This document shows, in pieces, positions 2,350 to 7,444 of a stretch of 8,082 bases of DNA. Under the pieces are notes generated by a model. The model was not told where the DNA came from. It did no database searches and saw only the letters and a list, made by a program, of their open reading frames with translations. The position numbers were made by a program, and so were the translations under genes. This stretch comes from a virus (taxonomy: Duplodnaviria; Heunggongvirae; Uroviricota; Caudoviricetes). Position 1 is the stretch's first letter; each line of letters starts with the position of its first letter. The DNA lies in IMG/VR virus record IMGVR_UViG_2548876962_000007; one strand, 5' to 3'.

Positions 2350-2377
2350 ACCCGCCGCTGGCGGGTTTTTTTATTTT
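2350..2377 (+). terminator. Intrinsic-terminator-like hairpin between the tail completion gene and the major tail gene
   Basis: Stem CCCGCC (2351-2356) / GGCGGG (2360-2365) with a short loop and an extra A-T pair (2350/2366), followed by seven Ts (2366-2372) and TTTT (2374-2377). Confidence 0.5.
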
Positions 2378-2389
2378 CAGGAGACGAGT

Positions 2390-3094
2390 ATGTCCTCTAA
2401 TTTTGAACGTTCTCAGCAGACCAAAGTCATGATCTCGTCTGCACCGGTAACGGCAGAAACGCTGAGTTCTGCCAGTTTTCTTGAACTGAGCTGTACGATT
2501 AAAGAGGTTCAGTTTACCGCCGGGCAGAAACAGGATATTGATGTCACCACGCTGTGTTCTGTTGAGCAGGAAAATATTAATGGTCTTGGTGCCGCGTCAG
2601 AGATTTCCATGTCAGGCAACTTTTATCTGAATGCTGCCCAGAACGCGTTGCGCAGTGCCTATGACAATGACACCACGTATGGCTTTAAAGTTATTTTTCC
2701 GTCAGGCAACGGATTTACCTTTATGGCAGAGGTGCGTCAGCATACCTGGTCTGCAGGAACCAATGGAGTTGTGGCTGCAACGTTTTCCCTGCGCCTGAAA
2801 GGTAAACCTGTACTGACGACAGATCCACTGAAAGTGAAGGTCGATTTAAACAGCACGCTGCAGGTTTCTGCCGGAGCGAAACTCGAAATGGTGGTTGAGG
2901 CTGCCGGTGGTGTGCCGCCTTATTCTTATGTCTGGAAGAAAGGTGGTTCTCCTGTTTCCGGACAGACGGCGGCAACGTTCAGTAAGGCATCAGCAGCATC
3001 CGGTGATGCCGGTGCGTATACCTGCGAGATTTCTGATTCAGCAAGCCCGGTTAGCAAGGTGACCTCCACTTCCTGCACTGTTACCGTCAGTTAA
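2390..3094 (+). CDS. Major tail (tube) protein, lambda gpV-like, with a C-terminal Ig-like domain
   Basis: 234 aa. Strong RBS AGGAG (2379-2383) 6 nt before the ATG. The N-terminal two-thirds is tail-tube-like (...YGFKVIFPSGNGFTFMAEV... parallels the lambda gpV segment ...AYKIRFPNGTVDVFRG... as I recall it). The C-terminal roughly 90 aa (...PPYSYVWKKGG...GDAGAYTCEISDS...) has the character of an Ig-like domain. Confidence 0.85.
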   Translation: MSSNFERSQQTKVMISSAPVTAETLSSASFLELSCTIKEVQFTAGQKQDIDVTTLCSVEQENINGLGAASEISMSGNFYLNAAQNALRSAYDNDTTYGFKVIFPSGNGFTFMAEVRQHTWSAGTNGVVAATFSLRLKGKPVLTTDPLKVKVDLNSTLQVSAGAKLEMVVEAAGGVPPYSYVWKKGGSPVSGQTAATFSKASAASGDAGAYTCEISDSASPVSKVTSTSCTVTVS

Positions 3095-3480
3095 TGAGGA
3101 TAGATGTGATGACTAAAAATATCCGTAATCTGGCACTGGCAACGATGTCGGGGTTTCGCCATAAAACTGTTGATGTGCCTGAATGGGAAGGGGCAACGGT
3201 TGTATTACGGGAACCTTCTGCAGAAGCCTGGTTGCGCTGGCAGGAGATCGTTAAAGCAAAAGATGATGAGACACCGTTATCCGTTGCGGAGCGCGCCCGC
3301 CGAAATCTGGAGGCAGATGTTGAACTGTTCATTGATGTTCTGTGTGGTACCGGACTGCAACCTGTATTTTCAGAGGATGATCGTGAACAGGTGATTGCCG
3401 TGTATGGCCCGGTGCATGCGCGGCTTCTTCGGCAGTCTCTGGAACTGATCAGTGATGCCGGTGAGGTTAAAAAAAAGTAG
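3094..3480 (+). CDS. Tail assembly chaperone, lambda gpG-like (short product)
   Basis: 128-aa ORF immediately upstream of the tape measure region, ending ...GEVKKK-stop with a slippery A-run at its 3' end. The start is ambiguous: ATG 3094 overlaps the upstream stop (TAATG) but has no obvious RBS, whereas ATG 3109 has GAGGA 8 nt upstream. Confidence 0.8.
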   Translation: MRIDVMTKNIRNLALATMSGFRHKTVDVPEWEGATVVLREPSAEAWLRWQEIVKAKDDETPLSVAERARRNLEADVELFIDVLCGTGLQPVFSEDDREQVIAVYGPVHARLLRQSLELISDAGEVKKK

Positions 3481-3782
3481 CGCTTCCGGGGATGCGTTTT
3501 CTGATGATGCTGGCGCTCAGGATGGGGCGCACATTGTCAGAGTTACGCCGGGAAATGTCAGCATCAGAAATCATGATGTGGGCAGAATTTGACAGGTTCA
3601 GCCCGCTGGGGGACGAGCGGGCTGATATCCGGGCTGCCCAGATAGTTTCTGCGGTTTACGGTGCGCAGGGTGTCAAAGTCCCACTGAATGATGCGCTTCT
3701 TCAGTGGGAGCATGATTCAGAAGAAAATAAATGCGATGATCCATTTATTGGATTAGAGGTTGCTCTAATGTCTTCACTATAA
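3094..3782 (+). CDS. Tail assembly chaperone frameshift fusion product, lambda gpGT-like (-1 frameshift at 3471-3477)
   Basis: The downstream ORF (track 3492-3782) is in the -1 frame relative to the chaperone ORF, has no RBS of its own, and its frame opens exactly at the slippery site. The arrangement and position immediately before the tape measure gene match the conserved G/GT chaperone pair of long-tailed phages. Predicted fusion is about 229 aa. Confidence 0.7.
3471..3477 (+). promoter_or_regulatory. Programmed -1 ribosomal frameshift slippery heptamer A AAA AAG (G/GT type)
   Basis: The last two codons of the chaperone ORF are AAA AAG (3472-3477), preceded by A at 3471, i.e. the X XXY YYZ heptamer A AAA AAG. 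The -1 frame has a stop at 3468-3470 and is then open from 3471 through to 3782. A -1 slip here therefore reads ...KK then V-A-L-P-G-M-R-F-L... into the 3492-3782 ORF. Confidence 0.7.
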
Positions 3783-3840
3783 GATAATTTTTTAATCGTT
3801 TTGAAATTGAATGCTTAACTCAAAGTCAGGAGGATTAATC

Positions 3841-4182
3841 ATGAGAAAATCAGTGGTGACATTAGCTTGTTTGTTTTTTATTAGTGCATGTAAACCATCA
3901 GATAATTATGTTATTTCTTTAGGGGAAAACTTAGTTAAAGATAAGCTTATTGATCCTGATAGTGCAAAATTTAATTCTTTTTTTCATAAGTCAGGTGATT
4001 TATATGGTTATGTTTGTGGGGATGTTAATTCAAAAAACACGTTTGGTGGATATACAGGGAAAAAGCCATATTTTGTTTATTTGGAAGTTGTGGATGGAAA
4101 AGTTAAGAGTCATGGGACTGTAACAATTGTTAATGATCATGATCCAAGCAGTATGGAAAAATATAAGTTGTTTTGCCAATAA
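3841..4182 (+). CDS. Predicted lipoprotein of unknown function (moron, about 113 aa) inserted between the chaperone and tape measure genes
   Basis: Strong RBS AGGAGG (3828-3833) 7 nt before ATG 3841; the track's ATG 3811 has no RBS. N-terminus MRKSVVTLACLFFISAC-KPSD is a positively charged n-region, hydrophobic core and lipobox I-S-A-C. GC content is about 30% by my hand count, far below the flanking structural genes. A terminator follows directly. I do not recognise a known family. Confidence 0.75.
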   Translation: MRKSVVTLACLFFISACKPSDNYVISLGENLVKDKLIDPDSAKFNSFFHKSGDLYGYVCGDVNSKNTFGGYTGKKPYFVYLEVVDGKVKSHGTVTIVNDHDPSSMEKYKLFCQ

Positions 4183-4231: not shown

Positions 4232-7200
4232 ATGGCGACATTACGTGAACTGATTATTAAAATATCGGCAAACTCCCGGTCATTCCAGTCAGAGATCTCC
4301 CGGGCTTCGCGTTTGGGGCAGGATTACTACCGCACCATGCAGAACGGAGGCCGGCAGTCCGCTGCGGCATCCCGTGAAATGCGGCGTGCACTGGCAGAAG
4401 TGACGGATCAGATAAATACAGCTAAATCTTCGGCACTGAATATGGCGGGGGCATTTGCCGGAGCTTTTGCTACCGGTCATCTTATTTCTCTCGCCGATGA
4501 GTGGAATTCAGTAAATGCCCGTCTGAAGCAGGCCTCACAGTCCAGTGATGATTTTCAGGCATCACAGCGTGAATTAATGGCGATCAGCCAGAGAACGGGG
4601 ACGGCGTTTTCTGATAACGCCAGCCTTTTTGCCCGTTCTGCAGCTTCCATGCGGGAGTATGGTTACAGTTCTGAGGAGGTACTGAAAGTCACCGAGGCGA
4701 TCTCCACGGGCCTGAAATTATCCGGTGCCAGTACAGCAGAAGCCAGTTCGGTGATCACGCAGTTCAGTCAGGCTCTGGCGCAGGGAGTGCTGCGTGGTGA
4801 AGAGTTTAACTCGGTGAATGAGAACGGCGATCGTGTTATTCGTGCGCTGGCTGCGGGAATGGGAGTTGCCCGTAAGGATCTGAAGGCCATGGCGGATAAC
4901 GGAAAACTGACCGCCGATAAGGTTGTTCCTGCACTGATTAGTCAGCTTGGGGCATTACGTGATGAATATGCGGCAATGCCTGATACGGTTTCATCCTCTG
5001 CAACCAAAGTTGAAAACGCCTTTATGGCCTGGGTTGGTGGTGCGAACGAGGCAAGCGGAGTGACGAAGACGCTCTCCGGTGTGCTGAATGGTATTGCAGG
5101 CAATATTGACACCGTGGCAACCGCTGCCGGTGCTCTGGTTGCCGTCGGGGTAGCCCGATATTTTGGCAATATGGCGTCTTCTGCTGGTTCTGCAACTGCC
5201 GGGCTAATCACTGCGGCCAGAAACGAAGTGGCTCTTGCGGAAGCGCAGCTCCGGGGGACGCAGATAGCAACCGCCAGGGCGCGTGCGGCAGTTTATCGTG
5301 CGCAACAGGCGGTTGCTGCTGCTCGCGGTACCGAAAGGCAGGCAGCCGCAGAATCGAAACTGGCTGCTGCCCAGGCGTCACTTACCCGTAATATTGCGGC
5401 CAGAACAGCAGCACAGACAACGCTGAATACTGTCACGTCAGTGGGAAGTCGTCTGTTAAGTGGAGCACTGGGACTGGTTGGTGGGGTGCCGGGGCTTGTC
5501 ATGCTGGGGGCCGCGGCCAGGTACACGATGTATCAGAATCAGGAGCAGGCCAGAGAATCTGCACGCCAGTATGCCGCAACAATCGACGAAATTCGCCAGA
5601 AAACGTCGGCAATGTCACTTCCTGAAGCGGCAGATAATGAAGAAAAGACGCGACAGGCTCTGGAGGAGCAGAATCGCCTGATTGGTGAGCAGGAAGGAAA
5701 GATTCGTGGACTGAAAAATCAGATTGCAGATTATCAACGCTGGCTTGATGAAAGTCCGCAGAGTGGTTCGGGTGCTGAAATCATCCTTAAAGGGCTTGCC
5801 GAAGCAACAAATCAACTGGCAGTTGAACAATCCCGTCTCACTCAAATGCAGGGCAAAGCGCAATCCATTCAGGATGTGCTTGCCGGGCTGGAGGAGCGCC
5901 GGGTGGCGTTGATCCGTCAACAGGCAGCGGAACAAAACAAAGCGTATCAGTCCCTGTTGATCATGAATGGGCAGCATACCGAGTTTAATCGCCTTCTCGG
6001 GCTCGGTAATGAATTACTTCAGCAGCGACAGGGGCTGGTGAATGTACCATTACGGCTGCCACAGGCAACCCTGGATGATAAACAGCAGACCGCGCTGAAT
6101 AACAGCGAGCGCGAACTGGCTCTGTCCCGCCTGAAGGGGGAAGCCCGTGAGCGTGCCCGCCTGGGTTATGCTGCGGATGATCTCGGCTTTGTGGGAGAGG
6201 CGTATCAGACAGCCAGACAGAATTATATCAATAACTCACTGGATGCCTGGCGAAATAACCAGGCAAATAAACCCAAAGCGCATAAAAAGACCGAAGCGGA
6301 AAAAACAGAAGATATTTATAAACGGCTGATTAAACAGCAAAAAGAACAGATAGCACTGGCAGGGCAGAATACTGAACTGGCTAAGATGAAATATCAGGTC
6401 AGTCAGGGCGAATTATCAACCCTGTCAGAAGCGCAGAAAAAAACGCTTTTACAGAATGCAGCACTCATCGACCAGAAAAAGATTCGTGAGCAGCTTGCCG
6501 CGTATGAAAGCAGTCTGGCGGACAGTAATGCCAGTGCCCGGGCATCTGACGACGCGCAGTTGCTGGGATATGGTGAAGGCTCACGGATGCGTGAACGACT
6601 CCAGGAAATGTGGAGTATCCGGCATGAGTTTGAGCAGAAAAATAACGAGCTGCTGAGACAGTATCAGGCCGGAGAAATTGAAGAAGCCCTGTGGAAACAG
6701 GAAAAATCGCTGAATGAAAAATATCTGGAAGAGCGTCTCAGCGATCAGCAGGATTATTATGCAAAGGCTGATGCTTTACGCAGTGACTGGAATGCCGGCC
6801 TCCAGGAGGGACTGACGAACTGGGCAGACAGTGCCACCGATTATGCTTCGCAGGCGGCAGATGCTGTCGTTTCCACTATGGACGGGCTGGTATCAAATAT
6901 TTCCGATGCACTGGCCGGAAATGTTGTGGACTGGAGAAACTGGGGGAGTTCAATTCTCCAGGAAGTTTCAAAAATTCTGATGAACGCTGCCATCGTTAAC
7001 GGGCTGAAGTCACTTTCCAAAAGCATGTCCGGTGCCGGAGGATGGCTTGGTACGGTCGGCGACTGGCTTTCCGGTGCAGTGGCAAACGCAAAAGGTGGTG
7101 TTTACACATCGGCAAATCTGAGTGCTTACAGTAACACTATTGTGGATACACCGACGTATTTTGCTTTTGCGAAAGGTGCCGGGCTGATGGGCGAGGCCGG

Positions 7201-7444
7201 GCCTGAAGCTATCATGCCACTGACACGGGCAGCGGACGGCTCTCTTGGGGTCAGAGCCATTGGCAATGTGAATGGTGGCGGGGGATTTGTTTATTCTCCC
7301 GTGTATCACATCAGTATTCAGAATAAAGGGAGCAATGGCGAGATAGATACGCAGTCAGCCAGGGGGCTGGTGGAACTGATCGACAGCAGGGTTGTGTCAA
7401 TTATGCAGTCATCACGTCGGGACGGAGGATTATGCAGTGCCTGA
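4232..7444 (+). CDS. Tail tape measure protein (lambda gpH-like C-terminal region)
   Basis: 1070-aa uninterrupted ORF directly after the chaperone pair. It has an Ala/Gln/Arg/Glu-rich, coiled-coil-like central region and two hydrophobic segments (about 5080-5170 and 5450-5530). The C-terminal region (...AIMPLTRAADGSLGVRAIGNVNGGGGF...) resembles the C-terminal part of lambda gpH as I recall it. Confidence 0.92.
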   Translation: MATLRELIIKISANSRSFQSEISRASRLGQDYYRTMQNGGRQSAAASREMRRALAEVTDQINTAKSSALNMAGAFAGAFATGHLISLADEWNSVNARLKQASQSSDDFQASQRELMAISQRTGTAFSDNASLFARSAASMREYGYSSEEVLKVTEAISTGLKLSGASTAEASSVITQFSQALAQGVLRGEEFNSVNENGDRVIRALAAGMGVARKDLKAMADNGKLTADKVVPALISQLGALRDEYAAMPDTVSSSATKVENAFMAWVGGANEASGVTKTLSGVLNGIAGNIDTVATAAGALVAVGVARYFGNMASSAGSATAGLITAARNEVALAEAQLRGTQIATARARAAVYRAQQAVAAARGTERQAAAESKLAAAQASLTRNIAARTAAQTTLNTVTSVGSRLLSGALGLVGGVPGLVMLGAAARYTMYQNQEQARESARQYAATIDEIRQKTSAMSLPEAADNEEKTRQALEEQNRLIGEQEGKIRGLKNQIADYQRWLDESPQSGSGAEIILKGLAEATNQLAVEQSRLTQMQGKAQSIQDVLAGLEERRVALIRQQAAEQNKAYQSLLIMNGQHTEFNRLLGLGNELLQQRQGLVNVPLRLPQATLDDKQQTALNNSERELALSRLKGEARERARLGYAADDLGFVGEAYQTARQNYINNSLDAWRNNQANKPKAHKKTEAEKTEDIYKRLIKQQKEQIALAGQNTELAKMKYQVSQGELSTLSEAQKKTLLQNAALIDQKKIREQLAAYESSLADSNASARASDDAQLLGYGEGSRMRERLQEMWSIRHEFEQKNNELLRQYQAGEIEEALWKQEKSLNEKYLEERLSDQQDYYAKADALRSDWNAGLQEGLTNWADSATDYASQAADAVVSTMDGLVSNISDALAGNVVDWRNWGSSILQEVSKILMNAAIVNGLKSLSKSMSGAGGWLGTVGDWLSGAVANAKGGVYTSANLSAYSNTIVDTPTYFAFAKGAGLMGEAGPEAIMPLTRAADGSLGVRAIGNVNGGGGFVYSPVYHISIQNKGSNGEIDTQSARGLVELIDSRVVSIMQSSRRDGGLCSA

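Follow-up and report, generated by a model that had tools for sequence, protein, structure and literature searches.

Does the major tail protein encoded at positions 2390 to 3094 of the 8,082-nucleotide stretch of viral DNA analysed here (the window) carry an immunoglobulin-like (Ig) domain appended to its tail tube domain, or is its C-terminal region an integral part of the tube fold? If the former, what might such a domain contribute to the virion?

The locus encodes the tail tube subunit of an HK97-type prophage

The 8,082 nucleotides come from an HK97-like siphovirus prophage of E. coli and make up its head-to-tail structural module. The genes flanking the tube gene were assigned as follows.

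28 to 639: major capsid protein, 3' part
890 to 1195: head-tail adaptor Ad1
1204 to 1542: head closure Hc1
1539 to 1988: HK97-gp10-like neck protein
1985 to 2329: tail terminator
3094 to 3480: tail assembly chaperone G
3492 to 3782: tail assembly chaperone T (Pfam Phage_tail_T; -1 frame)
3811 to 4182, plus strand: small extra gene (predicted lipoprotein)
4232 to 7444: tape measure protein

The tube gene itself is organised as follows.

2390 to 3094, plus strand: major tail (tube) protein gene, 234 amino acids plus stop codon (3092-3094), ortholog of HK97 gp12
2390 to 2809, plus strand: N-terminal tail-tube domain, residues 1-140, lambda gpV-N-like fold with a long flexible loop at residues 49-66
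2810 to 3091, plus strand: C-terminal Ig-superfamily decoration domain (Ig_2/Ig_3/I-set type), residues 141-234 (94 residues), identified by Pfam, an AlphaFold2 model and Foldseek
2906 to 2941, plus strand: motif GG-x-PPY-x-Y-x-W-x-K, G173 to K184, comprising the B-C loop and strand C and including the Ig core residue W182
3005 to 3025, plus strand: Ig strand-F signature D-x-G-x-Y-x-C, D206 to C212, recognised by conservation and by a model strand at residues 208-215

Searched against PHROGs, the whole protein was placed in phrog_158 'major tail protein' (E=5.8e-108). A ribosome binding site (AGGAG) lies 5 nt 5' of the ATG at 2390. The Pfam tube families Phage_TTP_11, Phage_tail_2 and Phage_TTP_12 all matched the protein below their own cut-offs (24.7 against 28.4 bits for Phage_TTP_11), and neither NCBIfam nor PADLOC returned a match to it. 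A sequence search of the PDB recovered no solved relative of the tube domain; the Ig domain alone was matched. At the nucleotide level, the gene matches that of Escherichia phage phi467 at 98.7% identity, and a chromosomal locus in E. coli strain 377323_2f carries an identical copy (100%). We conclude that the product of 2390 to 3094 is the tail tube subunit of an E. coli siphovirus prophage of the HK97 type. Two minus-strand open reading frames beneath the tube/Ig region (2721 to 2975 and 2926 to 3078) are mechanical only, and Rfam identified no RNA family on either strand of the whole window.

A strong hairpin resembling an intrinsic terminator (2350 to 2376, plus strand) occupies the gap between the genes for the tail terminator and the tube protein, just 5' of the ribosome binding site. 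It consists of ACCCGCC-GCT-GGCGGGT followed by a run of T. Its conservation extends to HK97, in whose record a putative terminator is annotated at the corresponding position. The T-tract is polymorphic, with seven T in the window and in phage 733R4 and six in 606R7, Evi and R49_2. Six T place an upstream ATG in frame, which accounts for the 251-residue annotations found in 606R7, Evi, R49_2 and clusters P0002-P0004. We rejected this extended start, since it hinges on the T-tract polymorphism and is out of frame in the window; the 234-residue start at 2390, which matches that of HK97 gp12, is very likely the true one.

Downstream of the tube gene, a -1 frameshift site of the canonical tail-assembly-chaperone (G/GT) type was observed at 3469 to 3480 (plus strand). 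The G reading frame ends in ...GTT AAA AAA AAG TAG, with the slippery heptamer A AAA AAG at 3471-3477, and the same G/GT -1 frameshift is annotated in HK97.

The small extra gene between chaperone T and the tape measure (3811 to 4182) stands out by its low GC content (30-35% against about 50% in the flanks), and the ATG at 3841 is its likely true start. Its product is a predicted lipoprotein of 113 residues with the signal peptide MRKSVVTLACLFFISAC, an invariant lipobox A-C and two further invariant cysteines. The gene is absent from the closest relatives (L006-L009). The protein belongs to phrog_2320 (unknown function) and had no match in Pfam, NCBIfam or PADLOC, while its structural model (pLDDT 86) gave no significant fold match in the PDB (best E 0.04, vaguely NTF2/VirB8-like). 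The same slot in HK97 holds an unrelated gene, the superinfection-exclusion moron gp15. A putative prophage-expressed envelope or exclusion function for the lipoprotein is plausible.

The C-terminal region is an Ig-superfamily domain

A first-pass annotation, made from the sequence of the window, had proposed that the last ~90 residues of the tube protein are Ig-like. When the C-terminal 90 residues were searched in isolation, they scored at or above the Pfam cut-offs of three Ig families: 31.5 bits for Ig_2 (PF13895; cut-off 27), 31.0 bits for Ig_3 (PF13927; cut-off 30) and, marginally, 24.1 bits for I-set (PF07679; cut-off 23.7), with E-values from 2e-7 to 4e-5. With the full protein as query the scores were 31.4, 29.5 (just under) and 21.1 bits (below), respectively. 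Matches to PF13927 are also precomputed for most homologs of the tube protein. No Pfam match to Big_1, Big_2 or fn3 was found in the protein at E<=1, and a Big_2 or FN3 identity of the module was consequently rejected.

The PDB sequence search aligned the domain with T5 pb10 (8zvi/5lxk; E=1.4e-16), at 44.6% identity over 92 aligned residues of the pb10 C-terminal Ig domain. Further matches were obtained to the Ig repeats of the phage tail proteins 9c2d and 9ncf (E~1e-26 summed over repeats) and to the Sf11 neck whisker protein 9occ. Within PHROGs, the C-terminus additionally matched the Hoc-like head decoration families phrog_2973 and phrog_4069. Together, the Pfam families and the pb10 match put the proposed Ig-like character of this region far beyond chance. 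The scan for Ig families had been suggested as one of three checks, and it came out in favour of the proposal, as did the other two (see below).

Both motifs quoted in the first-pass annotation are present: PPYSYVWKKGG, which spans residues 176-186 (nt 2915-2947) of the 234-residue protein, and GDAGAYTCEISDS, which spans residues 205-217 (nt 3002-3040). The GG-x-PPY-x-Y-x-W-x-K motif also occurs in T5 pb10 and in 9c2d/9ncf. Across 67 full-length homologs, G173, G174, P177, Y178, W182 and K184 are 97-100% conserved (0.99 for W182, the strand-C tryptophan), and the strand-F residues D206, G208, Y210 and C212 are conserved at 0.93, 0.97, 0.93 and 0.93. The full set of strongly conserved positions in the domain (L153, V169, G173, G174, P177, Y178, W182, K184, D206, G208, Y210, C212, D216, S226 and C229) consists mostly of determinants of the Ig core and fold and marks no obvious binding surface.

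The strand-B cysteine is absent. Thirteen residues before W182 lies V169, a valine conserved at 0.97, at what we take, from the consensus spacing of I-set domains, to be the canonical strand-B cysteine position. The classical Ig disulfide therefore cannot form. This loss does not disqualify the domain from the Ig superfamily, because many cytoplasmic I-set domains, for example those of titin, also do without the canonical disulfide. A second conserved cysteine, C229 (0.88), resides in the last Ig strand; the codons of C212 and C229 occupy 3023 to 3025 and 3074 to 3076.

A sub-threshold match to the SprB repeat (PF13573; 19.6 bits, cut-off 28) was also seen over 'GGVPPYSYVW' (nt 2894 to 2947, residues 169-186). 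A PF13573 match is precomputed for several homologs, and GGVPPYSYVW resembles the repeats of Bacteroidetes gliding-motility adhesins. This likeness may reflect convergence or a distant relationship within Ig-like repeats.

The predicted structure separates the tube and Ig domains

AlphaFold2, run on a 72-sequence alignment, gave a model (mean pLDDT 81) with two separate domains. Residues 1-140 formed a beta-sandwich accompanied by a single helix and by a long loop that was disordered (residues 49-66), an arrangement typical of tube proteins. Residues 141-234 formed an all-beta sandwich with a pLDDT of ~95. The inter-domain linker is short (residues ~137-147, pLDDT ~80), and the relative orientation of the two domains is uncertain in the model (pTM 0.60).

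The best whole-chain Foldseek matches in the PDB were to lambda gpV (7t4f, 8iyk and 8iyd; E 1e-9 to 7e-8). The N-terminal domain on its own matched lambda gpV-N (7t2e/8k36; E~4e-6, TMt 0.55-0.57), in a set comprising 7t2e, 8k36, 8k35, 9mfe, 8qhs and 6toa (E 4e-6 to 1.5e-4, TMt 0.55-0.61); the proteins matched include the YDC107 tail core (9mfe), monocin MttP and the GTA tube protein. The initial description of a gpV-like tube domain bearing an Ig domain is thus right at the level of the fold, although the two proteins are only 15-17% identical in sequence and the Ig domain here is not of gpV's Big_2 class.

The C-terminal domain superposed on the Ig domain of MALT1 (3bfo) with a TM of 0.90 and an rmsd of 1.5 Å over 91 columns, and on the capsid decoration Ig of Moo19 (9d7z) with an rmsd of 1.3 Å over 96 columns. 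It also matched titin I-set domains (among them 2rik), and the capsid decoration Ig modules of Moo19 and N4 superposed on it at 1.3-2.6 Å rmsd. We assign residues 141-234 to the Ig superfamily, as a beta-sandwich of the I-set/Ig_2/Ig_3 class that is homologous to the T5 pb10 and Hoc-like Ig modules.

These results bear directly on the possibility that the C-terminal region is integral to the tube fold, for instance as a C-arm making ring-ring contacts as in SPP1 or 80alpha, and that its likeness to Ig is spurious. Nothing was found in favour of this possibility. Scores above curated cut-offs for Ig HMMs, a separate high-confidence beta-sandwich, superposition on Ig domains at 1.3-1.5 Å rmsd and the existence of homologs lacking the region (see below) refute this proposal, to which we attach almost no credence. 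The structure prediction that had been suggested as a check returned a separate all-beta domain.

The Ig domain is fused in frame and is lacking from some syntenic relatives

One reading frame, with no intervening stop, spans the tube and Ig parts of the gene. No slippery heptamer (X XXY YYZ) was found around the domain junction (nt 2790-2830), where both alternative frames stop within a few codons. The claim that the Ig domain shares the frame of the tube domain and is not added by frameshifting is borne out by this single uninterrupted frame. A programmed frameshift at the junction giving an Ig-less isoform is unsupported. It follows from the shared frame that each tube subunit bears one Ig domain.

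The homolog search recovered hundreds of full-length relatives in prophages of E. coli, Klebsiella, Citrobacter, Enterobacter, Pectobacterium, Dickeya and Erwinia, many of them named 'immunoglobulin domain-containing protein'. A comparison with relatives lacking the domain had also been suggested, and such relatives exist: a subset of 147-150 residues, with tube domains 76-78% identical to that encoded here, ends 7-10 residues after LRLKGKP. The gene order around them is otherwise unchanged (L001-L004). In three of these loci (L002-L004) the chaperone gene starts 8 bases after the stop codon of the tube gene, and in the fourth (L001) 31 bases after it, leaving no room for an Ig domain hidden in another frame; a frameshift-encoded Ig in the 147-150-residue relatives was rejected on this ground. 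Because syntenic relatives stop after LRLKGKP without an Ig domain, we consider the domain a dispensable module that was added to the tube fold and does not belong to it.

The same relatives define the domain boundary. The first-pass annotation had placed the Ig domain at 2820-3094, and the domain does lie there, but the limits were off: position 2820 is the second base of codon 144, and the domain occupies nt 2810-3091, its start being set at residue 141 because the Ig-less relatives end just after ...SLRLKGKP (residue 140). As regards structural identity alone, we are as good as certain that the gene encodes a tube protein of the HK97 gp12 type with an Ig decoration joined to it in frame.

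The Ig domain evolves faster than the tube domain, under purifying selection

Mean pairwise identity among the 67 full-length homologs is 73% for the tube domain and 52% for the Ig domain. A group of homologs (P0097, P0102, P0106 and P0107) retains a tube identity of ~73% with an Ig identity of only 24-30%. Ratios of non-synonymous to synonymous divergence (omega) were estimated by the Nei-Gojobori method on eight phage genes. They ranged from 0.03 to 0.11 for the tube part and were mostly 0.12-0.42 for the Ig part, with one close pair reaching 0.54 on very few substitutions; between distant orthologs, synonymous divergence was saturated. On these estimates, the Ig domain is under purifying selection that is several times more relaxed than that on the tube domain, as expected of an accessory domain exposed to solvent.

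Of 5426 complete E. coli genomes, 1198 carry the gene, 894 of them with at least 80% coverage; RefSeq names it 'immunoglobulin domain-containing protein' in more than a thousand E. coli genomes.

These data also weigh on a neutral-passenger proposal, in which the Ig domain is a promiscuous module that recombination passes between phage structural genes, is functionally neutral and is tolerated owing to its independent folding. The fact that close relatives differ in whether they have the domain would fit this proposal, as would the occurrence of the same module on the heads, necks and tails of unrelated phages and the lack of a laboratory phenotype reported for some tube Ig domains. A neutral passenger is, however, difficult to reconcile with omega values clearly below 1 at saturated synonymous divergence between distant orthologs, with an open reading frame that is intact in the great majority of matches (full length in the 894 complete E. 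coli genomes) or with retention of the domain from E. coli to Klebsiella, Pectobacterium and Dickeya prophages. We therefore judge it improbable.

A mosaic patch was noted at window positions 2407 to 2530 (gene nt 18-141, residues 6-47), within the part coding for the tube domain. The gene differs from those of the closest phages (606R7, Evi, 733R4 and R49_2) at 36-50 nucleotides; 23 of these differences cluster in the first ~140 nt, and the identical 23 positions differ from all four phages. This pattern indicates a short recombination tract within the tube domain and not at the tube/Ig junction. The patch explains why, in close pairs, dS is higher for the tube half, and given its position a recent recombination junction at the domain boundary was rejected.

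A candidate role in surface adhesion

What, then, might the Ig domain do? The explanation that we consider probable as a whole combines an Ig-decorated tube subunit with low-affinity adhesion to surface carbohydrates. From established knowledge of tube proteins, the N-terminal domain would polymerise into hexameric rings stacked about the tape measure protein, and Ig domains would hang outside the tube, six per ring. By our own estimate this would give of the order of 200 Ig copies per tail. Such an array could act as a low-affinity, high-avidity adhesin for host lipopolysaccharide (LPS) or capsule, or for gut mucus glycans, and could keep the virion at the surface so that the rate of productive receptor encounter would rise. 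The Ig domain would be an accessory in this scheme, and building the tube would not require it.

Several observations favour this explanation. Reviews describe Ig domains as projecting outward from siphophage tubes, with adhesion the prevailing, proposed hypothesis for their function, and mucus-glycan binding has been proposed for T4 Hoc. The module found here is shared with outward-facing decorations (T5 pb10, the Hoc-like PHROGs, Moo19 and N4), which would support adhesion, and a fast-evolving yet selected Ig half would likewise support an exposed accessory role. Against it, the residues conserved in the Ig domain are mostly those of the fold, the analysis brought out no ligand, glycan-binding motif or binding pocket, and reviews describe the function of tube Ig domains as unclear and the Ig-fold domain of the SPP1 tube as dispensable for infection under laboratory conditions. 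Weak, multivalent binding to surface carbohydrates that raises productive adsorption is the best-supported candidate mechanism, and we hold it to be somewhat better than an even proposition.

A different role is suggested by lambda. There, the Ig domain runs along the axis of the tube and contacts the beta1-beta2 loop of the neighbouring subunit; tails still form when it is removed, but activity drops ~100-fold. The Ig domain here could by the same token be mainly structural, making neighbour-subunit contacts on the tube surface that stabilise or assemble a long flexible tail, as proposed for lambda gpV-C. The purifying selection on the domain and its short linker to the tube domain (residues ~137-147, with a model confidence of ~80) are compatible with such contacts. 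Syntenic relatives with tube domains ~76% identical nevertheless have no Ig domain, so this tube family presumably assembles without it; the Ig half evolves several times faster and has apparently been replaced by very divergent versions, which would be unexpected of a co-evolving interface; and the Ig class here is I-set type, lambda's being Big_2. A mainly structural role is the main rival to adhesion but on balance unlikely.

An extension of the adhesion mechanism is more speculative. In otherwise syntenic Enterobacteriaceae prophages the Ig domain occurs in three states: standard, highly divergent (24-30% identity, with the tube domain at ~73%) and absent. The domain might be a swappable cassette for niche specificity, whose alleles might tune adsorption to particular O-antigens, capsules or mucus glycans. 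The conserved, non-canonical cysteine pair C212 and C229 might also form a stabilising cross-strand disulfide once the virion is extracellular. We regard this reading as a doubtful conjecture.

Comparison with known systems

The tube plus Ig architecture of this protein is already known and belongs to a known family. HK97 gp12, BP-4795 ORF64 and PY54 gp12 are listed as tube proteins with a C-terminal I-set domain in Table 3 of a 2022 review (PMC9022992), according to which ~70% of Enterobacteriaceae siphophage tube proteins carry Ig-like domains, most of them encoded in frame. The architecture was catalogued in 2006 by Fraser et al., as cited in that review.

The closest of the known systems is HK97. 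Its gp12 (NP_037706) has the same length of 234 residues and is 71% identical over 234/234 residues, gap-free across both domains; it differs by sequence divergence only, the Ig half being more diverged than the tube half. The gene order is shared from Ad1, Hc1, the gp10-like gene, the tail terminator, the terminator hairpin and the tube gene through the G/GT chaperones with their -1 frameshift to the moron slot and the tape measure.

Lambda gpV, the best whole-chain structural match, shares the two-domain architecture, the fold of the N-terminal domain and the in-frame Ig domain. It differs in its low sequence identity (given above) and in the class of its Ig domain, Big_2 in lambda and the eukaryote-like Ig_2/Ig_3/I-set class here.

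The closest solved relative of the Ig module itself is the C-terminal Ig domain of T5 pb10 (PDB 5LXK, 8ZVI), with which it shares the GGxxPYxYxW and DAGxY motifs. In pb10 the Ig domain is solvent-exposed and has been proposed to bind carbohydrate. It is carried there on a helical capsid-binding domain and displayed on the head, whereas here it is carried on the tail tube.

SPP1 gp17.1* likewise bears a C-terminal Ig-fold decoration on a siphophage tube protein, dispensable for tube formation. In SPP1, however, the decoration is an FN3 domain added by a programmed +1 frameshift to about a quarter of the subunits, whereas here it is of I-set type, in frame and on every subunit. Set beside these systems, the present locus offers a natural experiment, in that closely related tail modules exist with the Ig domain, with a divergent Ig domain and without one. 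Such sets of modules could test the hypothesis that tube Ig domains aid adsorption or adherence to mucus.
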